Below are positions 8,005 through 42,397 of a stretch of DNA of 64,000 bases, piece by piece; within the stretch, counting starts at the first letter, position 1; the number at the start of each line of letters is the position of its first letter. The stretch spans positions 2,285-66,284 of the forward strand of contig JAHIZV010000218.1 in the NCBI GenBank assembly GCA_018814445.1. The letters run 5' to 3'. The position numbers and the translations under genes were made by a program. The stretch comes from Verrucomicrobiota bacterium (lineage in GTDB: Bacteria > Verrucomicrobiota > Kiritimatiellia > JAHIZV01). The notes below the pieces were generated by a model. It was not told the origin of the DNA and did not search any database. It saw nothing but the letters and a program-made list of their open reading frames with translations.

Positions 8005-8850
8005 TCAATCACCGAGGACTATGTTGTCAATCAGGCGCGTCTTCCCGATCCTGATTGCCGCGGCCACAATGTCGCCGCAGCTCGCATTCTCGCAGGGCGA
8101 CCAGTCTGATGGATCGATGACGGCCGCGTAGTCGGTTCGTGCGCCGGGGACTTGCTCGATGACCGCTTTCATGGCCTCGTTGATGACCGTCGCGTCACGT
8201 TCGCCGCCGGCGAACAGGCGCTCCGCTTCAAGCAGGGATCTCCTGAGACACAGCGCTTCCTCTCGCTCGTCTTCAGACAGGTACCGGTTACGCGAACTCA
8301 TTGCAAGACCGTCAGGCTCTCTGACGGTGTCTCCCGCCACGATTTCGACCGGAATATTCAGGTCAGCAACCATTTTCGCAATCAACGCCAACTGCTGGAC
8401 ATCTTTCTTCCCGAAAACGGCCGAGTCCGGCTGGATGATGTTCAGCAGTTTAGCAACGACAGTGAGAACGCCCATGAAATGACCCGGCCGGCATTCGCCC
8501 TCAAGTCTTCTTGAAATCACCTCTTCCTCCACGAAAACCGTCCGGCCCGGCGGAAACATCTCTTTGACGGATGGATAGAAAACAGCATCGACACCTTCGC
8601 TCCCGCAAAGTTCCCGGTCCCGTTCAAGATCACGGGGATATGCGTCCAGATCCTCAGTCGGCCCGAACTGAAGGGGATTGACGAAGATGCTCACGACAAC
8701 AAAATCGGCATACTGCTTCGCAAGCCGAATAAGGGAAAGATGTCCTTCATGGAGATATCCCATGGTCGGCACAAGAGAGATGGTCCTTCCCCTCCTCTTC
8801 AGGTCGACCACGACTTCCCTCATGCCGGATATAGAAGTGATTAGATTCAA
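8005..8850 (-). CDS. panC: Pantoate--beta-alanine ligase (pantothenate synthetase)
   Basis: 'LVPTMGYLHEGHLSLI' HIGH-type motif of PanC; ~280 aa. Confidence 0.9.
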   Translation of the reverse strand: MNLITSISGMREVVVDLKRRGRTISLVPTMGYLHEGHLSLIRLAKQYADFVVVSIFVNPLQFGPTEDLDAYPRDLERDRELCGSEGVDAVFYPSVKEMFPPGRTVFVEEEVISRRLEGECRPGHFMGVLTVVAKLLNIIQPDSAVFGKKDVQQLALIAKMVADLNIPVEIVAGDTVREPDGLAMSSRNRYLSEDEREEALCLRRSLLEAERLFAGGERDATVINEAMKAVIEQVPGARTDYAAVIDPSDWSPCENASCGDIVAAAIRIGKTRLIDNIVLGD

Positions 8851-8913: not shown

Positions 8914-9717
8914 CTAGTAGCAGTTTTCAGGACCGGGGAAATCACCTTTCTCAACTTCGCCCCTGTAGGCTTCAAGCGCCTTTGTGATCTCCGTGCCCAA
9001 CTCCGCGTATCTCTTCACGAACTTCGGCCTCATGTCGTCGTAGAGCCCCAGCAGATCGTGAATCACCAGAATCTGTCCGTCACAGCCGGGACCCGCGCCT
9101 ATTCCGATGGTGGGCACCTGCACCGCTTCTGTGATGGCGGCGCCGACATCAGACGGCATGCCCTCCAGGACAATTGTAAACACGCCGGCTTCGTCCAGCG
9201 CAACGGCGGACGCCTTCAACTCCTCCGCCGCTTTCTCACCTCTTCCCTGGACTTTGTATCCACCCATCGCGCGCACACTTTGCGGAGTCAGACCGATGTG
9301 ACCCATCACCGGAATGCCGTTCTCAACAAGAGCGCGAATCACCGGCACGCGGAATGAACCACCTTCAATCTTCACCGCATCGGCGCCGGCCTCCTTGAGA
9401 AGCCGCCCCGCATTGTCCACGGCCTGTTCGACCGAAACCTGAAAACTTAGGAAGGGCATGTCGGCGACTACTAATGCGTGTTCAACACCCCGGACAACTG
9501 CCGCCGTGTGATGAATTACCTGTTCGAGCGTCACGGGAAGAGTTGAATCGTAGCCCAGCATGGTCATCCCGAGAGAATCGCCTACGAGAATGATCTGGAG
9601 TCCGGCCCTGTCGACAAGTCGCGCCATCGTATAATCATAGGCAGTAAGCGAGGTAATCCTGCCTTTACCCTTCAGAGCGCGAATCTTCGTCGTCGTCCAT
9701 TTTCCGGATGAGCTCAT
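8914..9717 (-). CDS. panB: 3-methyl-2-oxobutanoate hydroxymethyltransferase
   Basis: 'LTAYDYTMARLVDRAGLQIILVGDSLGMTMLGYDSTLPVTLEQVIHHT' is diagnostic of PanB. Lies immediately downstream of panC. Confidence 0.9.
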   Translation of the reverse strand: MSSSGKWTTTKIRALKGKGRITSLTAYDYTMARLVDRAGLQIILVGDSLGMTMLGYDSTLPVTLEQVIHHTAAVVRGVEHALVVADMPFLSFQVSVEQAVDNAGRLLKEAGADAVKIEGGSFRVPVIRALVENGIPVMGHIGLTPQSVRAMGGYKVQGRGEKAAEELKASAVALDEAGVFTIVLEGMPSDVGAAITEAVQVPTIGIGAGPGCDGQILVIHDLLGLYDDMRPKFVKRYAELGTEITKALEAYRGEVEKGDFPGPENCY

Positions 9718-9758: not shown

Positions 9759-10262
9759 CTACCAATTGACGGCGAGCGCCTGAACGCCGCTTCGATCGTT
9801 CAGTGAGGCCAGAATCTCCCGGGCAGACCTGCTGGACCCCGGAATGATGAGGTCGGGGCGTATTTCGGCCAGGGGCTCAACAACAAACCTTCTCTCCGCC
9901 CACCTGGGATGAGGAACCGTGAGTCCACCGCTGTCGATGCACTCATTCCCCGCGTAGAGAATATCAATGTCGATCGGTCGCGGCGCGTATCTGTCTTCAC
10001 CGCGTTCACGACCCAGATCCGCTTCGATTCCGGAAAGCAAATAAAGCAGCGGACCCGCCGCTGTCTCACTTTCAATAATGACCACGGCGTTCAGGAAAGA
10101 CATGTGCATGTACTCTTCCTTCACACCGACTGGAGCCGTTTCGTAAAGTGACGACTGCGCGACGAGGCGGACACCTTCGAGCGACGCAATCGCATCCCTG
10201 GCGGTCGACATATTCGCCGCCCGGTCGCCGATGTTTGAACCGAGGCTGAGACCGATCTCCAT
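9759..10262 (-). CDS. folK: 2-amino-4-hydroxy-6-hydroxymethyldihydropteridine pyrophosphokinase (HPPK). The ORF-track N-terminal extension was rejected.
   Basis: HPPK motifs 'LGSNIGDRAANM', 'APRPIDIDILY', 'TVPHPRWAERRFVVEPL'. The start codon overlaps the dapB stop as TAATG at 10260-10264. The 43 residues upstream in the track ORF are an Arg-rich, non-conserved extension. Confidence 0.85.
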   Translation of the reverse strand: MEIGLSLGSNIGDRAANMSTARDAIASLEGVRLVAQSSLYETAPVGVKEEYMHMSFLNAVVIIESETAAGPLLYLLSGIEADLGRERGEDRYAPRPIDIDILYAGNECIDSGGLTVPHPRWAERRFVVEPLAEIRPDLIIPGSSRSAREILASLNDRSGVQALAVNW

Positions 10263-11080
10263 TAGTCCAGCCCGAGGACGTCGAGCATGGAATACAGCCC
10301 GGCTTCGCGGCCCGCGATCCATGCCGCGGCCTGTAGTGCGCCGACGGCAAATGCGTCTCTGCTCGTTGCCCTGTGCGAGAGTTCCACACACTCGCCGTCC
10401 GCCGCGAATATAACAGTGTGATCGCCGACGATGTCTCCGCCGCGAACCGCGTGGAACCCGATCTGCTCAAGCGGCCGATCATCCGGGCTGAGACCCGCGC
10501 GTCCGTGCTGAGCCACCTGCTTCAAATCCCAGTTCAGGCCTTCAGCTACTGCTTCCCCCAAACCAAGGGCCGTCCCGCTCGGCGCGTCTTTCTTGCGACG
10601 GTGGTGACGCTCGACGATCTCCACGTCATACCCCTTCCCCTTCAAGGCCGAGGCCGCGCGCTTAGCTAACGAAAGAAGCAGGTTCACTCCCAGGCTCATA
10701 TTCGGAGCCATCACTACGGGAATTCGCTTCGAGGCCTCCTGAATCATCGCCTTCTCATCGTCGGAGAATCCTGTCGTCCCGACAACCACCGCCTTTCCCC
10801 ACTCGGCGGCCCGGCGCGCGTTTTCCGCACATCCCGTGTGAAAACTGAAATCAATCAAGACATCAGCGTCTTCAGCAACCGCGGCAAGATCGCTTGTTAT
10901 GGCAACTCCCATTTCGCCGACCCCACTCGCGACGCCAACGTCCTTGCTCAGACCGGGCGCGTCCCACACGTCGATCGCGCCCGCGAGTTCAATCCCTTCG
11001 ACCGCACCATTGTGAATGCACCGCGCCAGCGCGCCGCCCATGCGGCCGGAGGCGCCAACTATTACGACTTTCGTACTCAT
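10262..11080 (-). CDS. dapB: 4-hydroxy-tetrahydrodipicolinate reductase
   Basis: N-terminal Rossmann 'KVVIVGASGRMGGAL'. 'EIVERHHRRKKDAPSGTAL' (E-H-H-x-x-K-x-D-A-P-S-G-T-A) DapB signature. Confidence 0.9.
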   Translation of the reverse strand: MSTKVVIVGASGRMGGALARCIHNGAVEGIELAGAIDVWDAPGLSKDVGVASGVGEMGVAITSDLAAVAEDADVLIDFSFHTGCAENARRAAEWGKAVVVGTTGFSDDEKAMIQEASKRIPVVMAPNMSLGVNLLLSLAKRAASALKGKGYDVEIVERHHRRKKDAPSGTALGLGEAVAEGLNWDLKQVAQHGRAGLSPDDRPLEQIGFHAVRGGDIVGDHTVIFAADGECVELSHRATSRDAFAVGALQAAAWIAGREAGLYSMLDVLGLD

Positions 11081-11183
11081 AGGATCGGTCCTCGCTTGTA
11101 ATGCTCCTAAAGTGGTTTAACGGAATGGGCGATTGGGTGAATGGGAGATCTCCCACTCGCCCTTTCTCTCTTTCCCTCACTCC

Positions 11184-12050
11184 TCAGAGAATGCCGAGTT
11201 CGACGAGGCATTCTCTGAGTCTCTGCTTCTTCCCTTCCGTCATTTCGCAAAGCGGAAGACGATAATTCTCCTCAATCCGCCCCATCATCGCCAGCGCAGC
11301 CTTTACGGGGATCGGGTTCGTATCGAGAAAGAGAACGCTGAACAACCGATGCAGGCGGGCATGTGATGCGCGCGCATCATCCCATCTGCCGCCCAGAGCG
11401 GCATGAACCATGTCCGACACGGCCCGCGGCGCGACGTTTGTCGCCACGCTGATCACGCCGACACCGCCGACACACATCATCGGCAGCGTGAGCGAGTCAT
11501 CGCCGGAAAGCACTTCGATATCACAGCATCTCCTGTGGTGACTCACACGATCCACATCGCCGGCAGCTTCTTTCACCGCGACAATGCTTGGGTGCTTTGC
11601 CAGTTCAACGATCGTCTCAAGCGCGATCTCCCGTCCCGTGCGCCCCGGAATATTGTAGAGCACTACCGGCAGACCGATGTCCGCTACCGCTGTGAAATGG
11701 CGAATCAGCCCTTCCTGACTCGGCTTGTTGTAATACGGCGTAACCTGGAGCGAGCCGTCCGCGCCGACTTCCTTGGCATGCTCAGTCAACTGAATAGCCT
11801 CCCCGGTGGAGTTGCCGCCCGTGCCCGCTATGACCTTCACGCGGCCCGCAACAGCCTCGACAGTCACCTCAATCACCTTGTTGTGCTCCTCGTAATCGAG
11901 TGTCGGTGATTCGCCCGTCGTACCGACGGGAACGATGCCGTCCACCCCGTTCGCGATCTGAAACTCGATCAGATCGCGAAAACGGTCGTAGTCTACCCCC
12001 CCGCCCGAGTTGAACGGCGTGACTATCGCTGTATGTGCACCTTCAAACAT
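11184..12050 (-). CDS. dapA: 4-hydroxy-tetrahydrodipicolinate synthase
   Basis: 'TAIVTPFNSGGGVDYDRFRDLIEFQIANGVDGIVPVGTTGESPTL' DapA family. Start chosen at the second ATG (MFEGAHTAIVTPF), which is preceded by GGGAG 7 nt upstream. Confidence 0.9.
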   Translation of the reverse strand: MFEGAHTAIVTPFNSGGGVDYDRFRDLIEFQIANGVDGIVPVGTTGESPTLDYEEHNKVIEVTVEAVAGRVKVIAGTGGNSTGEAIQLTEHAKEVGADGSLQVTPYYNKPSQEGLIRHFTAVADIGLPVVLYNIPGRTGREIALETIVELAKHPSIVAVKEAAGDVDRVSHHRRCCDIEVLSGDDSLTLPMMCVGGVGVISVATNVAPRAVSDMVHAALGGRWDDARASHARLHRLFSVLFLDTNPIPVKAALAMMGRIEENYRLPLCEMTEGKKQRLRECLVELGIL

Positions 12051-12149
12051 CTGTCTACTCCCAAACATCTAGGCTGAGGCTTCGGGCCAAACACGTTAAA
12101 GAGTGAATGCAAACCCGCCGCGTTGTCCACGATAGCCTCCAGCCATTTA

Positions 12150-12830
12150 TTAGCGAATCCGTCTTCTTCGCAGTGCCAGCATCCCGCAACCGACAATCAA
12201 CAAACCCAACACCGACGGTTCCGGGATGATTGTCAGCCTCAGGTCCACACCGTCCGCAGGATTGTCCGGGTTTGTCGGACCAAAGATCTGTTCCTCACGA
12301 GGCGTGATCAGATCGAGGGTGGATACGGTGCCACCGATGGCAAACTGGCCACCTAGTCCTGCATTGATATTCTGAATCGCCTGGGCGTTTAGGGTAATGC
12401 TCAGCATGGTCCCGTTATCGGCGGAGGACACACTGATATCGCCGTATGCGTTTCCCGACTGCATGTCCGTAAAACCCGCGACCCCGGCGCTTCCGTCCCG
12501 GATGGCAGGGATGCTTCCCGTGATGTCATATACCGTGAACGTCTCTGAGGGATCGGCGCTAAGGTACCAATTGCTTTCAATCCAAAACTCCGCGCTTATG
12601 ACCTGCGCACTCAGACCAGAGAGATCAAAGACGAAGAAGTTGTTGGAAATGAAATCGTGGCCAGACGATGAGCCTCCAATAATGTAATTATGATAGTTTG
12701 GATCATGGTTTCCGGTTGCCGAATAAGTACCCCGGTCAATCGGGTTGAGGATGATATCTGCGTGACAGACCCCCACGAGCATCAACAGGCCGACAATGAA
12801 CCGACTAGTTCTTTGAGATAATGAGTACAC
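12150..12830 (-). CDS. PEP-CTERM sorting-domain secreted protein
   Basis: N-terminal signal peptide. C-terminus 'IIPEPSVLGLLIVGCGMLALRRRRIR', i.e. PEP motif, TM helix and Arg-rich tail (exosortase substrate signature). Confidence 0.7.
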   Translation of the reverse strand: MYSLSQRTSRFIVGLLMLVGVCHADIILNPIDRGTYSATGNHDPNYHNYIIGGSSSGHDFISNNFFVFDLSGLSAQVISAEFWIESNWYLSADPSETFTVYDITGSIPAIRDGSAGVAGFTDMQSGNAYGDISVSSADNGTMLSITLNAQAIQNINAGLGGQFAIGGTVSTLDLITPREEQIFGPTNPDNPADGVDLRLTIIPEPSVLGLLIVGCGMLALRRRRIR

Positions 12831-15474
12831 TGTATTCTCCCAGTTTGAAGGTTCCGGTGTAAGGAAGGCCGTCTTTGGTTTGCAGGACGGGCGTAACGGT
12901 GTCGTTCAAGTCGCCGGGATTGGTCCCTGACGGCGGGTCGCTCACAAAACGGATCGTCCAGGTTCCGCCCGAGGGCATGCCGATGTCGTACGCTGTCCAG
13001 CTATTCCCGCTGAAGTTCGCCAGCACAATCACATCATCGTCGGCCCCTCCCGCATCATAACGATGGAACGCAATCACATTTCCAGACGCAGCATCGTTGA
13101 CATGATGCACGTCGATATGCTCGCCCATCAGGCCCTGTGTGGTCCCGTACTCATTCCGGCGCAGCATCACCATCGCGCTGGTGTCGTCCACCACCTTGGA
13201 TAGCGTATTGGTCTTGCTCCACTCCAGCGCCCGGCTTTCTGTCCAGCCGCCGGAACCGCTGCCTGGTACGCCATCGTCCGCGAATTCATCGCCCATATAC
13301 AACAGAGGAATGCCCGGTGCGGTCAGCACCATTGCGTTGCCCAAAATGCAACGCAGTTGTGTTTCCGTGGACGTGGTGCTGATGTTGTTATTACTGGCAA
13401 TCTGCGTGGCGATGCGCAGCTTACTGTTCAGTTCATTGATCTCGTCATGGGACGTGATGTAGTTCACTCTATTGAAGGCATCATCGCCGATCACCCGTTC
13501 CAGATCCTCCTGCACTTTGGCTATCCACGGGTCGGTATCAATCACCACCGCGTTCTTGATTTCCTCCAGATTGTCCCACTGCGAATCGAAGCCAGCCCCG
13601 CCTAGAGCATTATGGCTGGTGTTATTGATGTCCTCCGTTATTGCGGTCATATCATTGGTATGAGCGCTGTTATTGGGGTCGGCCAAATCCTCCGCCATGC
13701 TCAGAGAGTTGGGATGCAGGGCATGCAGGCTTTCGTTAATGTCCTGCATCATCATCCACCCCTCCGGAATGTCATATTGTGAACGTAGCAGGCCTAAGTC
13801 CCAGTCCTTGTTTCTAATCACCTTGGTGGCATCCCAGCGCAGCCCATCGCCGTGGTAGTCCCGTACCCACATCTGAGCGTTTTGCACGATGAAGTTCCGC
13901 ACACCGTTGGTGGAATAGTCAGGTCGCGGCCCCCATAGGGTCCAGTACCGTCGCTGGTCTGCATTCTCATAGTAGTACAATCCTCCGGGGTCTCCGGTAA
14001 CGCCGGTGCTGTCCCAGCCCCACACGCCGCCGGGAGTCTGATTGAAAGTGCCGGGCGTGCTTGATCCGTCGTGCCAATGATTGATTACGAAGTCAAAGTA
14101 GACCGCCAGCCCCAGTGAGTGGGCGATGTCCACAAAGGACTTGAGGGCATCCACATCCCCGTACTGCTCCTCAATCCGGTAAGGATGTTCCAGATTATAG
14201 CCCCACGACCATGTGCCCTGATAATCATTGACCGGCAACAACTCTACCGCCGTGAAACCCAGGTCCGCGATGTAGGACAGCTTGGCTTCTGCCTGCGCAA
14301 AGGTGCCCGGCGTGCTGTTGCTGACACTCAGCCCGCCGATATGCAGTTGATAGATGATCGTCTCGTTCTTTGCCGGAGGGACGAAGTCATCATCCGTCCA
14401 CTCATAGGCATATGGATTCACATAGACCGAATCGCTGCCTCCTGAATCCAGCTTGCGGGAGGTGGGATCGGCAATCCACGTTGATCCATCGATGTAGAAC
14501 TTGTACTCCGCGCCGTTTGTCACGGTCTGCGACACCTGCACCGACCAGTAGCCGTTGGTGCCTTCGGAAGTCATGGCTGTCTCAGCCCAGCTGTTGAAGG
14601 TTCCGCGAACGGACACGCTGCTCGCATGCGGCGCCCACAGGCGGAAGTTGCCATTGTGCCCGTTGACGTGTACCGCGTAGTTTGCGGGCGTTTCGTTCAG
14701 CAGTTCCTGGTCGTCCGTAGTACCGTCACCATCAGTGTCGGCTTTGAGCGGGTCCGTACCGACGCATCGTTCCAGCCAATCGGGCACACCTTCGTCGTCA
14801 CTGTCGAGTGCTCCCGCGATATTGGCCCGGCAATGCCGGAAACTCTCCAGCGTTATGCTGTTCGTGACAATCTCGCCGGTCCCGGTGGTCGCGCCAGCCA
14901 CCGTCCAGCTGGGAAGCCCCAGACCCATCGCCGTTTGCAACTCGTAATCTCGCAGGGCTTCGGTGGAGTAGGAAACAAGAGCATTCGTGACTTGAAGCTT
15001 GAAATCGACAATGGAGAAGAAGTCGTTTTCATCGTCCGGGTCTGTACCCGCGAGCACTTCATCCTGATTGCTTACTCCGTCCCCGTCGTCATCTGTTGTC
15101 GCGGCGTTGGTGCTGTTGCCGCAATGGGTCGCCCAGATTTGATAAAGCTGCAAAGCGGTCAGGCCACTACTCAAGGGCGCAGAGGGCGGGGAACCGCCTT
15201 GACCCGAAGGCGAAGGCGCGACGGAAGCCGCGGCAGCGGTCGATGTCGCGGCGACCGGTCCGGTGGACTGTTCGGCGGTGAGCCATTCCTCATAGGAGGG
15301 AATCTCTATCTCGGGCATATCCGCTTCGCGCTGAATTTCGTTGAAGTGCTCGATGGATGCTATGTGCGCTTTGTACTCCGCAGTCCGGTCTTGTGCATGC
15401 ACAACAGTCACGCTCGTGAATACCGTAACGGCCAGAACCAACCTTGCGACACTGGCAATCATCTTTGTCTGCAT
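12805..15474 (-). CDS. Secreted GH13-family alpha-glucan-active enzyme (branching/debranching-like) with N-terminal TSP3-like Ca-binding repeats and a CBM48/E-set-like domain
   Basis: Signal peptide 'MQTKMIASVARLVLAVTVFTSVTVVHAQ' after an RBS GGGAG. 'DDDGDGVSNQDEVLAGTDPDDEND' and 'DTDGDGTTDDQEL' repeats. 'FRLWAPHASSVSVRGTFNSW' (E-set). Catalytic-region motifs 'GFTAVELLPV', 'GLRWDATKVI', 'YITSHDE'. Confidence 0.8.
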   Translation of the reverse strand: MQTKMIASVARLVLAVTVFTSVTVVHAQDRTAEYKAHIASIEHFNEIQREADMPEIEIPSYEEWLTAEQSTGPVAATSTAAAASVAPSPSGQGGSPPSAPLSSGLTALQLYQIWATHCGNSTNAATTDDDGDGVSNQDEVLAGTDPDDENDFFSIVDFKLQVTNALVSYSTEALRDYELQTAMGLGLPSWTVAGATTGTGEIVTNSITLESFRHCRANIAGALDSDDEGVPDWLERCVGTDPLKADTDGDGTTDDQELLNETPANYAVHVNGHNGNFRLWAPHASSVSVRGTFNSWAETAMTSEGTNGYWSVQVSQTVTNGAEYKFYIDGSTWIADPTSRKLDSGGSDSVYVNPYAYEWTDDDFVPPAKNETIIYQLHIGGLSVSNSTPGTFAQAEAKLSYIADLGFTAVELLPVNDYQGTWSWGYNLEHPYRIEEQYGDVDALKSFVDIAHSLGLAVYFDFVINHWHDGSSTPGTFNQTPGGVWGWDSTGVTGDPGGLYYYENADQRRYWTLWGPRPDYSTNGVRNFIVQNAQMWVRDYHGDGLRWDATKVIRNKDWDLGLLRSQYDIPEGWMMMQDINESLHALHPNSLSMAEDLADPNNSAHTNDMTAITEDINNTSHNALGGAGFDSQWDNLEEIKNAVVIDTDPWIAKVQEDLERVIGDDAFNRVNYITSHDEINELNSKLRIATQIASNNNISTTSTETQLRCILGNAMVLTAPGIPLLYMGDEFADDGVPGSGSGGWTESRALEWSKTNTLSKVVDDTSAMVMLRRNEYGTTQGLMGEHIDVHHVNDAASGNVIAFHRYDAGGADDDVIVLANFSGNSWTAYDIGMPSGGTWTIRFVSDPPSGTNPGDLNDTVTPVLQTKDGLPYTGTFKLGEYSVLIISKN

Positions 15475-15653
15475 TGCCATCTCCCTTTGCGCTAACGATA
15501 CACCCATGACCGCTACAAGTGCATTCACTTCTTCTCTTCCTCTAATATTTATTTCCAAGCATTGGAAGTCTGTTGAACACGCAACGCTCAACGAGCAATC
15601 TTCAATTGTGCGTTGATTGTTGACGATTGCATGTTCTGAGTTTTCTCCCCGAT

Positions 15654-16904
15654 CTACCACTCGGGAATGTTCTCGCCTCTCACGAGGTCGTCACGTGATT
15701 CGCGCTCCCGGACTGCCTGATGCCGATCGCCCGACACCATCACTTCCGCCGCGCGCGGACGGCTGTTGTAGTTTGACGACATTGCAAATGCATACGCGCC
15801 GGCACTGCATACGGCCAGAAGGTCGCCCTCCGACGCAGTCGGCAGGTCTCGATCACGCGCCATGAAATCGCCCGACTCGCAAATCGGCCCGACCACGTCT
15901 CCAAAAAAGGTCTCCGACGTCTCCGTCACCGGAAGGATCTCATGATAGGCCTCGTACAATGGCGGACGAAGCAGATCGTTCATAGCGGCGTCCACAATCA
16001 GGAAGCGCTTGAACGCGTTGTCCTTCACATACTGTACGCGCGTCACCAGGATGCCCGAGTTCCCGGCAATGAAGCGTCCGGGTTCCATCACCACTTGAAG
16101 CCCCATCTCCTTCAGGTGCGGAAGAACCGCATCGGCAAACTGAGCCGGGGTGAAGGGCTCGTCGCTCTCGCGGTACTTGATGCCCAATCCGCCGCCGATA
16201 TCGATGTATCGGAACGTGGCATGCTTCGCCTTCATCTCAAGGCAGAAGTCCTTCACCTTTTCCAGGGCCTCGACATAAGGCGACACGTCCATGAGCGGCG
16301 AACCGAGATGCATATGAATACCGACCATGTCGACAGCAGGCAATGCGGCCGCCCTCTCACATGCGGCTCGCGCCCGCGACAGATCGACACCGAACTTGTT
16401 CTCCTTTTTTCCGGTGCTCGTATACTTGTGCGTCTTCGGATCCACATCTGGATTCACTCGAACCGCAATCCGCCCTTTCAGACCAAGCTCCACCGCGCAC
16501 TCGTTGATGCGCTCCACTTCCGGCTCGGACTCCACCGTGAAGAACAGAATATCCTCTTCAAGCGCGTACCTGATTTCATCCCTCGTCTTCCCGACTCCCG
16601 CGAATGCGATTTTCGACGCCGGAATCCCCGCTCGCAAAGCCCGGAACAGTTCACCGCCCGACACCACATCCGCTCCAGAACCGAGCCCGGCGAGTGTGTT
16701 GATTACCGCTGCGCATGTATTGGACTTCACGGAGAAGCATACGACCGGCTCGACGTCCGCCATGGCCGCGACCAGCGTGTTATACTGCTCTATCAGATGA
16801 GTCCGGCTGTAAACGTACAGAGGCGTTCCGTATTCCTCCGCCAGATCAGCGACAGAAACATCTTCGGCGAACAACTGCCCGTTACGATATTGAAAAGAAT
16901 CCAT
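15654..16904 (-). CDS. lysA: Diaminopimelate decarboxylase
   Basis: PLP fold-III decarboxylase motifs 'CFSVKSN', 'YIDIGGGLGIKY', 'EPGRFIAG', 'CESGD'; ~416 aa. Confidence 0.9.
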   Translation of the reverse strand: MDSFQYRNGQLFAEDVSVADLAEEYGTPLYVYSRTHLIEQYNTLVAAMADVEPVVCFSVKSNTCAAVINTLAGLGSGADVVSGGELFRALRAGIPASKIAFAGVGKTRDEIRYALEEDILFFTVESEPEVERINECAVELGLKGRIAVRVNPDVDPKTHKYTSTGKKENKFGVDLSRARAACERAAALPAVDMVGIHMHLGSPLMDVSPYVEALEKVKDFCLEMKAKHATFRYIDIGGGLGIKYRESDEPFTPAQFADAVLPHLKEMGLQVVMEPGRFIAGNSGILVTRVQYVKDNAFKRFLIVDAAMNDLLRPPLYEAYHEILPVTETSETFFGDVVGPICESGDFMARDRDLPTASEGDLLAVCSAGAYAFAMSSNYNSRPRAAEVMVSGDRHQAVRERESRDDLVRGENIPEW

Positions 16905-16994
16905 ATTGACCCGCTAATGAACGCTAATGTCAGAGCTTGAACACGTCAACGCGCCTCGTCCAGAACTAACCTTTCCCATTCCAGTTTCGGCGGT

Positions 16995-18185
16995 TCATTT
17001 CTTCTGCGCTCGCGCCCGGACGCGCAAACGCAACGCGTTCAGCTTGATGAACCCCGTCGCGTCCGCCTGGTTGTAAACTTGCTCCGTTTCGAAAGTCGCC
17101 AACTCCGGATCATAGAGCGACTGAGGCGACTTTCTGCCCACGAGAATGCAGTTGCCCTTATACAGTTTGACGCGCGCCGTGCCCGTGACGCAGGACGCGG
17201 CCTCGTCCATGGCGGCCTGCAGCATCTCCCGCTCCGGCGCATACCAGTAGCCGTTGTAGACGAGGTCGGCGTACTTCGACACGAGACTGTCCCGCAGATG
17301 AAGCGTTTCCCGGTCCATCGCAATCTGTTCAACACCTTCCCGCGCCCGATGCAGAATCGTTCCGCCCGGCGTCTCGTAGACACCACGGCTCTTCATGCCG
17401 ACATAACGGTTCTCCAACACATCGATCCTGCCTACGCCGTGCTTTCCGCCCAGCTTGTTAAGCACCTGCATCACGCCCAGCGGCGATAACTTCTTGCCAT
17501 TGACGGCTACAGCATCGCCCGCTTTGAAATCAATCTCCACATACTCCGGTTCGTCAGGAGCGTTGCCCGGACTGACCGACAGCCGGAAGATATCCTCGGG
17601 CGGCTCAGCCCACGGATCCTCCAGTATCCCGCCCTCGTAGCTGATATGCAGGAGGTTCCGGTCCATGCTGTACGGCTTCTCAACCGTCACCGGCACCGGA
17701 ATGTCATACTTCTTCGCGTAGTTGATGCAATCCGTCCGGGACTTGAGATCCCACTCCCGCCAGGGCGCGATAATCTTGATATCGGGCTCAAGCGCGTACG
17801 CGGTCACTTCAAAGCGGACTTGGTCATTCCCCTTGCCGGTTGCTCCGTGACTTATGGCGTCCGCGCCGTTTTCACGCGCGATCTCAATCATACGCTTCGC
17901 GATCAGCGGGCGCGCGATCGACGTACCCAGCAGGTAACCCGACTCGTACACCGCCCCGGCCCGAATCATCGGAAAGACAAAGTCCGTCGCAAACTCTTCC
18001 CGCAAATCGTCGATGTAAACCTTGGAAGCGCCCGTGCTCTTAGCCTTCGCCTCAAGCCCGTCGAGCTCCTCTTCCTGCCCTATGTCCGCAGCAAACGCTA
18101 TGACTTCAGCATCATACTTCTCAATGAGCCACCGCATGATCACCGAGGTGTCCAAACCGCCCGAATATGCCAGTACTACCTTCAT
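16995..18185 (-). CDS. argG: Argininosuccinate synthase
   Basis: '[15 protein letters not shown]' PP-loop and ~400 aa ArgG family. ATG start preceded by AGGAGG. The GTG two codons upstream is an alternative start. Confidence 0.9.
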
Positions 18186-18197
18186 CCGCACCTATCC

Positions 18198-18300
18198 TCC
18201 TAATCGTAATCCTAATCGTGATCCTAATCGTGATCCTAATCGTAATCCTGATCCTGCATCTGGAATCCAGCATCCGCTATCCCGAATCAGGCATCCGGTA
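18198..18300. repeat. Intergenic tandem repeat: 12-mer 'ATCCTAATCGT(A/G)' x4 followed by a run of degenerate 7-nt units built on ATCC/ATC (ATCCTG, ATCCTG, CATCTGGA, ATCCAGC, ATCCGCT, ATCCCGA, ATCAGGC, ATCCGGT, ATC)
   Basis: Read directly from the sequence between argD and argG. Related to the repeats at ~20395-20470 and ~21680-21746. Coordinates +/-2 nt. Confidence 0.8.
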
Positions 18301-19492
18301 TCTTTCGATATTCCTCACATGCCTCTTCAATAATCTTCAAGGCCTTCTTAACTTCAGATTTTTTCACATTCAAAGGGGGCAGCATTCGTATGACATTGCC
18401 CGCCGTCGCAAGTGTAATGAGCCGCTTACTCATCAGCAACTTCTCAAAGTCTTTCGCCGGTTGATTAAGAACAAGCCCGATCATCAGGCCGATGCCCCGT
18501 ACCCGCTCCAGAAACTCATACTTCTCAACCAGCTTTCCGAGCTTTTTCATCATCAGCCGGCTCATCGCACATGCGTGTTCGAGGAGGTCTTCCTCATCGA
18601 TGGTATTCAGAACGGCAAGCGCCGCTGAACAGGCCAGCGGTGTTCCACCGAATGTCGTTGCATGATGACCCGGCTGAAACACTTCTGCCAGCTTCGGCGC
18701 GGTAACCACCGCGCCTATCGGGAACCCGCCGCCAAGCCCCTTCGCCAATGAAATCGCGTCCGGCGTGATCTCAAAGTTCTGATATCCAAACCATTTTCCC
18801 GTCCGTCCGACTCCGCACTGGACTTCGTCGCAGAGCAGCAGAATGCCTTTTTCATCACACAATGCCCTCAGGCCCCGGATGTATTCCGGATCTGCGGGAA
18901 CCACGCCGCCTTCGCCTTGAACAACCTCGACAAGCACGGCCGCGGTCTTCTCATCAATCGCGTTCCTGCACGCTTCAAGGTCGTTGTAGGGTACGCATTT
19001 GAATCCCTCCGGCAGAGGCTCAAAGCCTTTCTGCACTTTGTCCTGCCCCGTCGCCGTCAACGTCGCGAGCGTCCTGCCGTGAAAAGAATTCTTCATCGTG
19101 ATGACTTCGTACCGGCCCTGCGATTTACCCCAGAGCCTGGCCAGTTTGATCAGCGCCTCATTGGCTTCCGCCCCCGAGTTGCAGAAGAAACACTTTCCGC
19201 CGAGTGATATCTGCGACAGCTTCTCGGCAAGAGCCGGTTGTTTCTCGTTGAAGTAGAGATTCGACACATGCATGAGTTTCTTCGCCTGCCTGGCGATGGC
19301 CTTGGACAGATTCGGATGGCAATGCCCGATATTCACCACGGCGAGACCGGCGAGAAAATCGAGGTACTCGTTGTCTTCGGCATCCCAAACCCGCGTTCCC
19401 CTGCCCTTAACCAGCGCCAGTCCCGGCGCGTAAGTCGGCATTACGTATTTCTGGTGCTTCTCTTTTATTTCTTCCGTGTTCATTTCTCTCAC
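18287..19492 (-). CDS. argD: Acetylornithine aminotransferase (class III PLP aminotransferase)
   Basis: 'YLDFLAGLAVVNIGHCHPNL', 'ALCDEKGILLLCDEVQCGVGRTGKWF' and a PLP-Lys region. Sits inside the arg cluster. Confidence 0.9.
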   Translation of the reverse strand: MREMNTEEIKEKHQKYVMPTYAPGLALVKGRGTRVWDAEDNEYLDFLAGLAVVNIGHCHPNLSKAIARQAKKLMHVSNLYFNEKQPALAEKLSQISLGGKCFFCNSGAEANEALIKLARLWGKSQGRYEVITMKNSFHGRTLATLTATGQDKVQKGFEPLPEGFKCVPYNDLEACRNAIDEKTAAVLVEVVQGEGGVVPADPEYIRGLRALCDEKGILLLCDEVQCGVGRTGKWFGYQNFEITPDAISLAKGLGGGFPIGAVVTAPKLAEVFQPGHHATTFGGTPLACSAALAVLNTIDEEDLLEHACAMSRLMMKKLGKLVEKYEFLERVRGIGLMIGLVLNQPAKDFEKLLMSKRLITLATAGNVIRMLPPLNVKKSEVKKALKIIEEACEEYRKIPDA

Positions 19493-19509
19493 CGCTCTCT
19501 GTTCCGCAT

Positions 19510-20382
19510 TCAGTTTATAATCTGCGTCCCGACCCCCTCATCCGTGAACAACTCCAACAACAGCGAGTGCGGCATGCCGGCGTCAATGATGTGAGTCTTC
19601 TTCACCCCGGCCTTCAGCGCGGTCACGCCGCCGCCAATTTTGGGAAGCATTCCGCCTGAAATGACGCCCTTCTTTATGTAGTCGTCCACCTCGCTCACTT
19701 TGACCGTCGAAATCCGCGATGACGGATCATTCATATCTTCAAGCAGCCCCGGCACGTCGGAGAGGAACACCAGCTTCCTGGCCCGAAGCTTTTCCGCGAT
19801 GGCCGCGGCAGCTTCGTCGGCGTTCACATTGTAGACTTTCTTGTCCTCTCCCCGGCCCAGCGGCGTGACAACGGGAGTCATGCTGTTCCCGAGAAAAGCC
19901 GTCAAGGGCGCCACATCGACATCCACCACGTCACCCACGTACCCCCAGTCCAGGACTTCGCCTGTCTCCGGGTCCGTTCCAGTCTTCTTTCTCACTTTGA
20001 TCAGATCGTCACCATGCACCCCCCATGCCGTGCAGTCGTGCGATTCAAGTACTGCAACCAGCTCGGCATTGATTTCCTGGTTCAGAACCTGTTCCACGAC
20101 CTGAACCGATGCCTCGTCAGTCACCCGCAGACCGTTGACGAACTTCGCTTCGATGCCTTTCGCCGCCATCATTCTCGAGATGGCCTTCCCCCCGCCGTGG
20201 ACGATCACCGGACGCATTCCGACCGCGGCCATAAAGGCGACATCTTTCAGGATGTCGCTGATAGCCTGCTTGTCCTCCATGATGCTGCCGCCGAATTTGA
20301 CTACGACAGTCTCGCCCCGAAACCGCTGGATGTACGGCATCGCATCAATCAGAACCCGCGCTTTTTCGATAATTCTTTCCAT
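19510..20382 (-). CDS. argB: Acetylglutamate kinase. The ORF-track N-terminal extension through the repeat region was rejected.
   Basis: 'VVVKFGGSIMEDK', 'RPVIVHGGGKAISRMM' amino-acid kinase family. Start at 'MERIIEK', preceded by GGAG 8 nt upstream. The upstream 25 residues of the track ORF are a translation of heptamer repeats. Confidence 0.9.
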   Translation of the reverse strand: MERIIEKARVLIDAMPYIQRFRGETVVVKFGGSIMEDKQAISDILKDVAFMAAVGMRPVIVHGGGKAISRMMAAKGIEAKFVNGLRVTDEASVQVVEQVLNQEINAELVAVLESHDCTAWGVHGDDLIKVRKKTGTDPETGEVLDWGYVGDVVDVDVAPLTAFLGNSMTPVVTPLGRGEDKKVYNVNADEAAAAIAEKLRARKLVFLSDVPGLLEDMNDPSSRISTVKVSEVDDYIKKGVISGGMLPKIGGGVTALKAGVKKTHIIDAGMPHSLLLELFTDEGVGTQIIN

Positions 20383-20394
20383 CCTGATTCTCCA

Positions 20395-20470
20395 ACCGAA
20401 ACCTGAAACCTGAGACCTGAAACCTGAGCAAGGAATCGGGAATCCGGCATCTGGCATCCGGAATCAGATA
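20395..20470. repeat. Heptamer-periodic intergenic repeat: GA(A/G)ACCT x4, then GGAATCG, GGAATCC, GGCATCT, GGCATCC, GGAATCA, GATATCA
   Basis: Seen directly between the argJ stop and the argB start. The strict 7-nt period and the 'GGNATCN' core are shared with the 18.2 kb and 21.7 kb repeats. Confidence 0.8.
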
Positions 20471-21649
20471 TCACATATTAATCCTCACATACTCCTCGGT
20501 GCACTCGCACGTATAGACAACGGCATGGCCATCGCCCAGGTTCAGATTGATGTTAATAGAAAACTCACTCTTAGCGACGATTTTCGAGAGTACATTGTCA
20601 GGCGTGCCCGCCGCGACGCCGCACCTGACCGCAGGCACATCGTCATAGCTGATATCTACCTTGTCCTCTTTGACCTTCGCTCTGGAATATCCGATCGCGT
20701 CCATGACCCGGCCCCAATTGGCCTCCTTTCCAACCCACGAAGTCTTCACGAGGAAGGAATTCGCGACAGCTCTCGCCGCGGCGTCCGCGTCGTCATCTCC
20801 TGCCGCACCACTCACGTTAATGGTTACGAACTTCTCCGCGCCCTCGCCATCCTTAACGATTTGAAAGGCCAATTCCCTTGTGACTTCCTTCACGGCCTCA
20901 ACAAACGAGCCCCACTGCGGGTGGTCTACAGAGAGAGGCGTATGATCCGCCTGCCCGTTTGCCAGAAGAAAAACCGTGTCATTCGTGCTCCGGTCACCGT
21001 CCACCGATATCCTGTTGAAACTGTCGTTCACGGCCGAAGTCAGAACGCCCTGCAGTGCAACACTGTCGATTACGGCATCCGTAAGGAGGAACGAAAGCAT
21101 CGTGGCCATATTCGGCTCGATCATCCCCGCCCCCTTGGCCATTCCGAATACAGTGACGCTCTGTTCGTCGATCATCATCTGCACCGACCAGTACTTGGGA
21201 ACGGTGTCCGTCGTCATGATCGCGTGTACGGCATCTTCGCCGCCGTCATACGAGAGAGCCGCGGCCAGAAGTTCGATGCCTTTCTCAATCTTGTCCATCG
21301 GCAGTGAGTCACCAATATGCCCCGTCGAACACACGAGAACATCTTCCGAAGGGCATCCGATCTGTTCCGCTGTCAGCTCTGTCATGCTTTTCGCATCGCG
21401 CATGCCGGCGTCGCCTGTGCATGCGTTCGCATTTCCGCTGTTCATGACGATCGCCTGCGCGACCCCCGAGTTGATATGCTGCCGGGAGACTTTCACAGGA
21501 GCCGCCGCCACCTGGTTCGTCGTAAAGACTGCCGCGGCGGCGCAGGGCACATCCGACACGATCATCGCCATATCCCTGGAGCCGCCCTTCTTTATCCCTG
21601 CATGCACTCCTGCCGCCTGAAAACCTGCAGGCATAACAATAGTCTTCAT
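20471..21649 (-). CDS. argJ: Bifunctional glutamate N-acetyltransferase / amino-acid acetyltransferase
   Basis: 'MKTIVMPAGFQAAGVHAGIKKGG' N-terminus. Autoproteolytic Thr region 'ATMLSFLLTDA' (ATML-T motif). ATG start preceded by AAAGGAA. The track ORF begins at an upstream GTG. Confidence 0.9.
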   Translation of the reverse strand: MKTIVMPAGFQAAGVHAGIKKGGSRDMAMIVSDVPCAAAAVFTTNQVAAAPVKVSRQHINSGVAQAIVMNSGNANACTGDAGMRDAKSMTELTAEQIGCPSEDVLVCSTGHIGDSLPMDKIEKGIELLAAALSYDGGEDAVHAIMTTDTVPKYWSVQMMIDEQSVTVFGMAKGAGMIEPNMATMLSFLLTDAVIDSVALQGVLTSAVNDSFNRISVDGDRSTNDTVFLLANGQADHTPLSVDHPQWGSFVEAVKEVTRELAFQIVKDGEGAEKFVTINVSGAAGDDDADAAARAVANSFLVKTSWVGKEANWGRVMDAIGYSRAKVKEDKVDISYDDVPAVRCGVAAGTPDNVLSKIVAKSEFSININLNLGDGHAVVYTCECTEEYVRINM

Positions 21650-21679
21650 AGTCCAAGTTCCTTTCTTACTCCCCACCCG

Positions 21680-21746
21680 ATATCAGATTCCCGATGCCGG
21701 ATGCCAGATAATGAGCGCGCCGATCCGACATCTGGTATCCGGCGAC
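21680..21746. repeat. Heptamer-periodic repeat (reverse-complement orientation of the 'GGNATCN' family) upstream of argJ
   Basis: 'GATATCA GATTCCC GATGCCG GATGCCA GATAATG ... GATCCGA CATCTGG TATCCGG CGACCGG CATCTGA'. Lies between the rpsI terminator and the argJ start. Confidence 0.75.
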
Positions 21747-21754
21747 CGGCATCT

Positions 21755-21791
21755 GAATAAAAAACAACCCCGAATGCCGGTGACATTCGGG
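21755..21791 (-). terminator. Rho-independent terminator of the rplM-rpsI operon
   Basis: Perfect 9-bp stem CCCCGAATG / CATTCGGGG with a 7-nt loop, followed on the minus strand by a U-run (plus strand 'AATAAAAAACAA'). Lies about 28 nt downstream of the rpsI stop. Confidence 0.65.
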
Positions 21792-21818
21792 GCTGCTGAA
21801 ACTGCATCTTTGCTCTGT

Positions 21819-22217
21819 TTAACGTTTCGAGAACTGGAAGCGTTTGCGGGCCCCGGGCTGTCCGGGTTTCTTACGCTCTTTCATACGCGGATCACGGGTC
21901 AGACAACCCGTCTTCTTCAACGCGTCTTTAACGCCTTCATCAGCCGTGACCAGTGCCCTGGCAATACCGTGCCTGAGCGCACCGGCTTGTCCGACTTTTC
22001 CGCCGCCTTTAACGGAGGCGATCACATCGTACCGCTTCAGCGTGTCGGTGAATGAAAAGGGCTGCTCCACATAGGCCTGAATGGCCGCGGACGGAAAGTA
22101 CTGATCAAACTCCTGTCCGTTGACTGTCATCTTGCCGACGCCGAGCGCGAGCCGCACTCTTGCTACGGAAGTTTTTCTCCGACCTGTCGCCGCGAACTCT
22201 ACCACCTTCTGTGCCAC
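21819..22217 (-). CDS. rpsI: 30S ribosomal protein S9
   Basis: C-terminal 'GGGKVGQAGALRHGIARAL ... KKPGQPGARKRFQFSKR' universal S9 signature. Confidence 0.95.
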   Translation of the reverse strand: MAQKVVEFAATGRRKTSVARVRLALGVGKMTVNGQEFDQYFPSAAIQAYVEQPFSFTDTLKRYDVIASVKGGGKVGQAGALRHGIARALVTADEGVKDALKKTGCLTRDPRMKERKKPGQPGARKRFQFSKR

Positions 22218-22249
22218 TTTCTTCTCCCTCGTTCCGCTTCAGCGAATTG

Positions 22250-22684
22250 TTAAAACGTCAGTTCCAGGACCTCTGGCTGTTGTGCAGCATGCGGATGCTC
22301 CGGCCCTGCGTAAACTTTGAGCCTCGTGATAATCTGCCTGCTCAACCGGTTCTTCGGAAGCATACCTTTCACAGCCTGCGTAATGATCCGTTCCGGATGT
22401 TTCTCCCGGATGGCAGCCGCCTTTGTTTCTTTTAATCCACTTGGATAGCCTGTGAAGTCCTGATAGATCTTCTGCTCGTTTTTTGCGCCGCTCAGCTTGA
22501 TCTTCTCAGCGTTGACGACGATGACAAAGTCGCCGGTGTCTATGTGAGGAGCGAACGTCGGCTTGTTCTTGCCCCGCAGGACATTAGCAATCTCGACGGC
22601 AAGCCGGCCGGTAGGCTTGTCGGCTGCATCGACAACATGCCATTTCCGGTTTACGTCTTCCTGTTTGACCAAAGTTGTTTTCAT
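22250..22684 (-). CDS. rplM: 50S ribosomal protein L13. The ORF-track upstream extension was rejected.
   Basis: '[29 protein letters not shown] ... [19 protein letters not shown]' L13 family. The 64 upstream residues in the track are not L13-like. Confidence 0.95.
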
Positions 22685-22882
22685 TCCACTTATTACCCTT
22701 TTACTCGCAAAAACAGGGGGCAGAACATAGCCAAGGGCGTAAACAGTGTCAACAACCATTCCGGCGAAAAAGACGCAGGAGTGGGAGAAAGGGAGAATGG
22801 AAGAGCGGGGGCATGGGAGTTTCCTGCTTTGCTCGCACGTGTCGGTACGCCATGATTCGCAGTCGAAAGGGTTCAAAAGGGC

Positions 22883-38155: not shown

Positions 38156-38248
38156 CCACGGTCCCTATAGCATGCTCGCTGACGTTTACCCCGCCAGAGG
38201 CGGGGGTCGCATCGACTTCATCGTCGGCCGGATTGAATGCATCGTGGA

Positions 38249-42280: not shown

Positions 42281-42327
42281 CGTCACATCATTCACTATCG
42301 TCTCCCGGGCGTTAAACATGGGGATGC

Positions 42328-42337
42328 TTTACGTAAA
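42328..42337. promoter_or_regulatory. Palindromic box TTTACGTAAA, site 3, in the divergent promoter between the two giant genes
   Basis: 'TGCTTTACGTAAACTTA' between the minus-strand gene ending at ~42280/42319 and the plus-strand SGNH gene. Confidence 0.5.
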
Positions 42338-42397
42338 CTTATGCAGTTTGCCGAACTGTTGAAGAGCCGGGACCATGCGAGTTATATTTGTCTCTAT

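Follow-up and report, generated by a model that had tools for sequence, protein, structure and literature searches.

The stretch of Verrucomicrobiota DNA analyzed here (64 kb, the window), which comes from a Kiritimatiellia-like metagenome-assembled genome, carries an arginine biosynthesis operon whose spacers contain tandem arrays of 7-nt units. On the minus strand, the gene order is rplM, rpsI, a terminator, argJ, argB, argD, argG, lysA, a GH13 gene, an unidentified gene, dapA, and dapB, with argJ at 21649-20471, argB at 20382-19510, argD at 19483-18287, and argG at 18185-16995. The arrays occupy three sites: the region between the rpsI terminator and argJ, where they form an inverted pair, the argJ-argB spacer, and the argD-argG spacer. 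No array was found in the argB-argD gap (26 nt from the argB stop to the argD start) or in the argG-lysA gap. On the coding strand, the arrays present GAT every 7 nt. The GGNATCN motif described in the first-pass annotation of this DNA is the same repeat on the opposite strand, where the units read NGGNATC (for instance, CGGCATC, TGGCATC, GGGAATC, and CGGAATC), with ATC and GG kept and GGG occurring only once or twice per array.

Upstream of argJ, the left arm of the inverted pair (21719..21753, minus strand; GATGCCG, GTCGCCG, GATACCA, GATGTCG, GATCGGC) begins directly after the T-run of the rplM-rpsI intrinsic terminator (21755..21797, minus strand; 16-bp stem), which adjoins the leader arrays on their 5' side and belongs to their context, not to the repeat. 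A short loop of a few bases separates it from the right arm (21679..21713; GATATCA, GATTCCC, GATGCCG, GATGCCA, GATAATG), whose GAT phase is on the plus strand; on the mRNA strand, this arm is ATC-phased, and it ends 29 nt 5' of the argJ ATG. The two arms correspond to inverted repeat I4, the 27-nt cores of which (21683-21709 and 21730-21756) are 81% complementary and lie 20 nt apart. Tandem Repeats Finder (TRF) also reports a period of 7 at 21684-21709.

The argJ-argB spacer begins with six units of the form GATNCCN (20431..20472, minus strand; GATATCT, GATTCCG, GATGCCA, GATGCCG, GATTCCC, GATTCCT; TRF, 20432-20465, period 7, 4.9 copies). They are followed by TTGCTC, by a second heptamer array made of four AGGTTTC units (20398..20425, minus strand; GAAACCT or AACCTGA on the plus strand; TRF, 20394-20427, period 7, 5.0 copies, 89%), by the Shine-Dalgarno (SD) sequence GGAG (20393-20390), 4 nt short of which the AGGTTTC array stops, and by the argB ATG at 20382. 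Between argD and argG, seven units of the looser form GATNNNN (18254..18302, minus strand; GATACCG, GATGCCT, GATTCGG, GATAGCG, GATGCTG, GATTCCA, GATGCAG) show a 21-nt super-period in TRF at 18263-18302. They pass into a hexamer-phased continuation (18194..18253, minus strand) in which GAT recurs every 6 nt (GATCAG, GATTAC, GATTAG, GATCAC, and so on), amounting to a 12-mer repeat (18198-18253; TRF period 12, 4.7 copies, 93%; repeat family D2). This array runs into the argG SD, AGGAGG (18201-18196), and the argG ATG follows at 18185.

Both intercistronic spacers are thus repeat filled from the stop codon to the ribosome-binding site, and the stop codons themselves belong to the arrays. The argJ TGA (20473-20471) is made of a preceding T and the first GA of the array, whereas the argD TGA (18289-18287) is supplied by array units 2 and 3, heptads 1 and 2 encoding the last residues of ArgD. 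Each downstream gene retains its own SD and start codon. An independent Logan assembly (L001) is identical to the window over 9,180 bp, arrays included. The exact tandem units that the first-pass annotation had placed next to the heptamers, GAAACCT and the 12-mer, are equally real. It had also blamed the arrays for spurious open reading frame (ORF) extensions, but the only calls that enter them are the longest-ORF ones for argB and argJ; the 'ILIVILIV' stretch, on the other hand, belongs to a spurious plus-strand ORF (18167-18628) that is antisense to the arg genes.

The arrays stand out clearly from the composition of the window, and the three arg regions named at first pass do contain them. 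The pattern GATN4GATN4GATN4GAT has 10 matches, versus 0.03 expected from shuffled sequences, and all 10 lie in the three arg spacers. The five-unit pattern with at most one mismatch has 8 matches (0.01 expected), and the three-unit pattern has 14 (0.86 expected), again without exception within the same spacers. A scan of the 64 kb by TRF and autocorrelation yielded no period-7 array besides those of the arg spacers, and 7 is the sole strong tandem period in the window.

Among the longer simple sequence repeats (SSRs) of bacteria, those with heptanucleotide units are the most abundant (Mrazek, Guo and Shah 2007, as summarized in PMC4679880 and PMC4692102). According to the same summaries, the abundance of this class (LSSR5-11) has been proposed to reflect expansion by polymerase slippage and not a specific function, and its members are mostly non-coding and found in free-living bacteria with larger genomes. 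The window arrays resemble LSSR5-11 as mostly non-coding tandem arrays of short units, here heptads; LSSR5-11 is, however, a statistical class, whereas the window offers a specific unit and locus, with position-specific conservation.

A closer counterpart is provided by the GGGNATC repeats of Xanthomonas and Nostoc, which number about 186 per genome in Xanthomonas, contain 2 to 26 units, and are 89-93% intergenic (Rehm et al. 2015, PMC4692102). Between 70 and 75 per genome form convergent inverted pairs, and they are rare between divergent genes; they lie nearer the 5' ORF (28 versus 160 nt) and overlap stop codons (PMC4692102). Their units are heterogeneous with some positions conserved, most are transcribed, they differ between close species, they adjoin genes of every function, and the study found no regulatory role for them (PMC4692102). 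The likeness to the window is extensive: GGGAATC, which is GATTCCC on the other strand, occurs verbatim, and the window arrays are likewise intergenic, overlap stop codons, include an inverted pair, have heterogeneous units, and vary between related genomes. They differ in that the G tract is usually GG and the potential to form a G-quadruplex (G4) is weak, the published G4 motif needing four G3 tracts; in that the free positions are partly different from those of the Xanthomonas (GGGANTN)n variant; in that the window arrays are joined to repeats of other kinds, with which they take up entire intercistronic spacers of a single operon; and in their Kiritimatiellia-like host of the Verrucomicrobiota.

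Other heptamer repeats are more distant analogs. The TAACTGA heptamers of marine Beggiatoaceae, cyanobacteria, and Bacteroidetes are intergenic, lie before starts or after stops, and adjoin genes of every functional kind, ribosomal and biosynthetic operons among them; regulation by an RNA- or DNA-binding protein was proposed for them (MacGregor 2015, PMC4679880). The Beggiatoa repeats are forward oriented and replace the ribosome-binding site, whereas in the window a canonical SD follows the arrays and the unit is different. The short tandemly repeated repetitive (STRR) heptamers of cyanobacteria are intergenic tandem heptamers too, with another unit, and the heptanucleotide elements of Geobacter metallireducens are a further analog (PMC2700814).

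The arrays of the arginine operon are therefore a fresh example of an already known repeat class. Probably, they are compound heptanucleotide, hexanucleotide, and 12-mer SSRs of the GGGNATC kind that arose from slippage and local block copying and that fill the permissive non-coding space of the operon; a dedicated role in arginine metabolism is not supported by the 64 kb analyzed. The first-pass annotation had offered a lineage-specific small repeat element as one of several possibilities, and this was essentially right. In the pathway that we propose, the 7-nt and 6/12-nt units would expand by slipped-strand mispairing, and blocks would be copied locally between neighboring spacers. Expansion would be halted wherever it meets selected sequence, be it the 3' end of the preceding gene or the ribosome-binding site of the following one, and in this way the arrays would come to make up whole spacers and to supply the argJ and argD stop codons. 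They would presumably be transcribed within the operon mRNA. Since the downstream genes keep their own SD and start, the effect on the arg genes would likely be generic: spacers would be lengthened, tight translational coupling would be lost, and the argJ leader would gain a modest hairpin.

Arrays of this type are not peculiar to the arginine operon when bacteria at large are considered. A scan for (GATN4)x5-GAT across 185,579 genomes (one per species, 596 Gb) returned at least 120 stretches (L005-L124), compared with about 17 chance matches that we calculate for the whole collection. The following description applies to the matches listed. They come from Planctomycetota, Bacteroidota, Acidobacteriota, Verrucomicrobiota, Chloroflexota, Desulfobacterota, Cyanobacteria, Gemmatimonadota, and others; crude ORF calling places about three-quarters of the arrays between genes, their neighbors are unrelated genes of all kinds, and contig ends are a frequent position. 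Convergent spacers outnumber divergent ones (19 versus 8), and in co-directional spacers there is no strand bias (19 sense versus 21 antisense). The 5' neighbor is nearer than the 3' neighbor (median, 26 versus 120 nt; 49/66; p=1e-4), an effect due largely to the many arrays that open an inverted pair, (GATN4)n - spacer - (N4ATC)n. Such convergent pairs around a spacer of 8-70 nt are common. Unlike heptamer units also abut frequently, as in GATGTCC + CACGACC + CTCTGCC or GATGCAG + CTCTTGC, reminiscent of GATNCCN + AGGTTTC in the window. Examples of these GAT-phased loci are L006, L010, L013, L039, L042, L105, and L113, as well as L007, L012, L025, L038, L080, L098, L099, and L108.

A control sample, unselected for repeats, consisted of 950 kb around ArgJ from 80 unrelated bacterial loci. 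There, 7 is again the commonest tandem period (11/28 arrays), in agreement with Mrazek 2007 as cited in PMC4679880 and PMC4692102, but GAT or ATC occurs in only 3/15 heptamer units and only 3/15 heptamer arrays adjoin argJ, both at chance level. The idea that GAT is a universal core of heptamer arrays was accordingly rejected, GAT retention in the scanned loci being an ascertainment effect of the search pattern, and so was a general enrichment of heptamer arrays beside argJ in diverse bacteria.

Comparison with other Kiritimatiellia-like genomes shows how variable these spacers are. The closest ArgJ proteins are 58-63% identical to that of the window, and the synteny rplM-rpsI-argJ-argB is maintained. 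No GATNCCN array lies at the window's positions in relatives L002-L004 and L205-L208, which are distant (ArgJ at most 63% identical). Their argJ-argB spacers can be minimal, at 7-31 nt in L004, L205, L003, and L207 (7 nt in L004 and L205). In the clade of L003, L207, and L208, inverted GGGTGTC ... GACACCC heptamers lie between the rpsI terminator and argJ. The copy numbers of the pair vary (3+5, 6+2.5, and 2+2, respectively), as does the hairpin that it folds into (z -4.7, -2.9, and -1.3), and in L208 the GGGTGTC unit appears again directly after the argB stop; the arrays of this clade are at L003:1028-1103, L207:9901-9975, and L208:6806-6850 and 9131-9160. L206, whose nearest relatives are L004 and L205, carries an inverted hexamer-phased ATCGNN / GATNGC pair (L206:7561-7648) that forms a very stable hairpin (-44 kcal/mol, z -7.1), and L004 has eight GGATGGN units about 400 nt upstream of rplM. 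Judging from these sequences, periodic arrays come and go in the arg spacers, and array sequence is unconserved. The first-pass annotation had reasoned that absence from the same positions in close relatives would speak against a regulatory role; the arrays are indeed absent from the syntenic relatives or built of another unit there, but the argument is tempered by the distance of these relatives.

Several observations weigh against an origin by slippage and copying. The first is positional: of 23 units, 21-22 retain GAT and 17-19 retain CC at positions 5 and 6, in contrast to the free variation at heptad positions 4 and 7 (chi-square p=5e-4). The second concerns two inverted 31-nt copies that bracket argJ (20442-20472 on the minus strand and 21679-21709 on the plus strand), with the common sequence GATATCN GATTCCN GATGCCN GATGCCN GAT. 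They are identical at 27/31 positions. Four successive units account for the 4 mismatches, each at heptad position 7, a pattern for which we estimate a chance of about 3e-5 if differences were random; this points to either constraint or a mutational hot spot. A heptad with G at position 7 reads CCGG, and 2/4 of the differences are G/A. The position-7 differences could therefore reflect either selection acting on the six remaining positions or a methylation/deamination hot spot. Position-specific conservation of this sort is not predicted by uniform neutral decay or pure slippage. The third is location. The arrays are confined to the arg operon among about 30 sizeable intergenic gaps of the window; the hexamer ATC/GAT hairpin of L206 occupies the same argJ-argB spacer as the window array; and in 155 kb of related genomes, a sample that is mostly argJ-anchored and contains only 3-4 independent events, every strong heptamer array lies in an arg-operon spacer. 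In 72 kb from relatives for which a non-arg gene served as the anchor, by comparison, only a short GATTGAT array and an octamer array occur. An enrichment of heptamer arrays in arg spacers within the Kiritimatiellia-like set is, on this basis, no more than suggestive.

The positional pattern is what a protein reading the heptad register might leave behind. Heptads could serve as binding arrays, either for a dimer that occupies one 7-bp unit and polymerizes, as the ribbon-helix-helix (RHH) protein omega does, or for a binder of about 7 nt of single-stranded DNA or RNA, acting as a general modulator or insulator of expression and not in an arginine-specific way. In the omega/parS system of pSM19035, contiguous 7-bp heptads occur in mixed orientations and at least 4 are needed for full function (PMC9499535). 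The window arrays are similar in having 5-7 contiguous units in direct and inverted orientation, an analogy that is functional only. The conserved GAT and CC, the free positions 4 and 7, and the position-7-only differences between the argJ-flanking copies fit this explanation, and so do, among the matches listed from other phyla, the many arrays that keep GAT(T) while other positions drift (L050, which keeps GATT while the other three positions drift, and similarly L008 and L045) and the lack of strand bias relative to transcription, as expected of recognition at the DNA level. Against it, GAT is not enriched in unbiased arrays, where all unit kinds occur, and the cross-genome set was chosen for GAT; moreover, unrelated units abut, hence no single specificity suffices. 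The omega heptad consensus is WATCACW, with an ATC core, and differs from the window unit outside ATC. In its Firmicutes plasmid, the system also has its cognate omega gene adjacent, whereas no RHH gene was recognized among the window ORFs scanned with Pfam, nor was any other candidate binder recognized in the window. We regard a heptad-register binder as unlikely.

A role in nucleic acid structure, in the form of hairpins like those of repetitive extragenic palindromic (REP) elements, which would affect mRNA stability or processing or provide insulation, or of a G4 or i-motif affecting transcription, seems to us quite unlikely. The leader arrays do pair (27 nt, 81%) and form the minimum free energy hairpin, and the relatives L003, L207, and L206 have, in corresponding places, the strong array-built hairpins described above. 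Inverted pairs are common both in other phyla, among the matches listed, and in Xanthomonas, whose consensus oligonucleotides form G4 in vitro (PMC4692102), and a position right after stops and terminators would suit a 3'-end stabilizer. The leader hairpin of the window is, however, weak and no better than those of shuffled sequences (z -1.3), and the intercistronic arrays are partnerless and, on both strands, give folds no more stable than those of dinucleotide shuffles (z +0.44 and -0.19). For a G4, the G tracts are mostly GG with loops of 4-5 nt, short of four G3 tracts, and the mRNA is the C-rich strand, the G-rich GGNATCN being the template strand. Neither a G4 nor a hairpin explains the invariance of GAT. 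These folding results also count against the structured leader or attenuator suggested at first pass. Rfam at the gathering threshold found only a tRNA elsewhere in the window, and a search of 18100-21900 at E<=1 gave no match.

A narrower version of the binding hypothesis centers on the operon itself. A new nucleic-acid-binding protein recognizing GAT(N)CC once per heptad would polymerize along the direct and inverted arrays on both sides of argJ and ahead of argB and argG, providing omega-like control or insulation of the arginine operon in Kiritimatiellia-like bacteria, in which no ArgR site is seen. The near-invariance of GAT, the differences restricted to position 7, and the recurrence of arrays in the arg spacers of relatives would then be its footprints. 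We consider this very doubtful.

The restriction of the arrays to the arg cluster had at first pass suggested a dedicated regulatory role. Control specific to arginine could take the form of operators for an oligomeric regulator, of an RNA target like those of TRAP or HutP (GAU every 7 nt), or of a leader-peptide attenuator, and it draws on the confinement of the arrays to three arg spacers and on the recurrence of periodic arrays in the arg spacers of related genomes. ARG boxes are 18-bp imperfect palindromes, TNTGAATWWWWATTCANW, usually paired 2-3 bp apart near the promoter. The 21-nt super-period at 18263-18302 equals the 21-nt spacing of ARG-box pairs, but the arrays are direct 7-bp repeats, unlike these palindromes, as had been recognized at first pass. 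No ARG box was found at up to 3 mismatches across the whole 64-kb window, and no ArgR gene was recognized among the window ORFs; together with the missing RHH gene, this leaves the suggested operator array for an arginine regulator unsupported.

An RNA target fares no better. TRAP and HutP sites are 5'-leader elements in which (G/U)AG or UAG triplets recur at a constant interval; they overlap an antiterminator or terminator and have a cognate ring protein. GAU triplets spaced by 4 nt do recall HutP sites, in which triplets are separated by 4-nt spacers. A TRAP/HutP-type array was nevertheless rejected: the triplet is GAU and not NAG, the arrays are mostly intercistronic and lie on both strands, there is no terminator/antiterminator leader, and no terminator follows. 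Neither a sigma-70 promoter nor a further terminator was found in the spacers, the only strong terminator being that after rpsI. The 12-mer array was also considered as a set of CsrA-type GGA sites or of SD-like standby sites; these ideas were set aside, since such sites cannot be told apart from a by-product of the GAT-TAG-GAT repeat.

As for attenuation, a leader ORF of 29 codons (21666-21752, minus strand; MPVAGYQMSDRRAHYLASGIGNLISGGE) runs through the leader arrays, with two adjacent Arg codons, CGG-CGC, in the hairpin loop and its stop 13 nt before the argJ ATG. The ORF is neither preceded by an SD nor followed by a terminator, and relatives L003, L207, and L208 lack a conserved counterpart; leader-peptide attenuation was rejected on these grounds. 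Finally, the units are wholly unlike between relatives (GATGCCN in the window, but GGGTGTC in the clade of L003, L207, and L208 and ATCGNN in L206, other relatives having none), a change that a conserved regulator would not tolerate, and heptamer arrays are not enriched beside argJ in the 80 unrelated loci. Arginine-specific control is thus highly improbable.

Other repeated elements were observed near arg genes in the genomes compared. In L004, L205, and L206, two to four TTTCCAAGGCTTGGAAA-like palindromes (similar to ATTTTCCAAGGCTTGGAAAA) lie about 35 nt apart ahead of argJ, with a second occurrence upstream of the biotin-carboxyl-carrier/accC genes in L205 and L206 (L205:9900-10000 and 12085-12150; L206:6260-6350 and 8520-8590; L004:1640-1780). 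The window has one weak match to the ATTTTCCAAGGCTTGGAAAA-like palindrome, inside a coding region (15552-15568). In the L004/L205/L206 clade, this palindrome is a candidate for an operator or a REP-like element. G/C-rich palindromes, CCCTCTCCCCTGGGGGGAGAGGG ... GGTGAGGGGG, are present in the arg spacers of two unrelated loci (L208:8113-8259 and L190:9925-9975) and look like a widespread interspersed repeat. In an unrelated lineage, heptamer arrays lie between the secA stop and argJ (L149:9919-9985, AACGTAG x9.6; L190:9865-9897, AAGTTGC x4.7), the one in L149 extending right to the argJ ribosome-binding site.

The arginine operon belongs to a long co-directional gene run on the minus strand (10262-22876), from rplM through dapB, in which genes for lysine biosynthesis are linked to those for arginine biosynthesis. 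A glycoside hydrolase, a 951-aa GH13-type enzyme that overlaps lysA by 7 nt, lies amid them, and the run also holds a 226-aa ORF, the unidentified gene, before dapA and dapB. Elsewhere in the window, a region of about 4 kb (38155-42134) has large inter-ORF gaps of 515, 236, 428, and 1,009 nt; its small ORFs have no Pfam match, and no tandem array or Rfam match was found there. Two paralogous giant proteins are encoded on the plus strand, at 42134-46222 (1,362 aa) and 59152-62928 (1,258 aa), with the NCBI tags KJ626_14365 and KJ626_14435. They are 41% identical over their full length and combine an N-terminal GDSL/SGNH hydrolase domain with an fn3 domain; the family seems to be expanded in Kiritimatiellia-like and Bacteroidota genomes.

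The lesson for annotation is that heptamer arrays give rise to spurious ORF extensions and interrupt assemblies, and that their presence in one window is no reason to read them as pathway-specific regulators. The locus described here is a clean and compact example of heptamer repeats in a little-studied phylum, in which whole spacers of an essential biosynthetic operon are built of repeats. If a binding protein or a structural role proved true here, it would bear on hundreds of arrays in Xanthomonas, cyanobacteria, Planctomycetota, Bacteroidota, and other bacteria.

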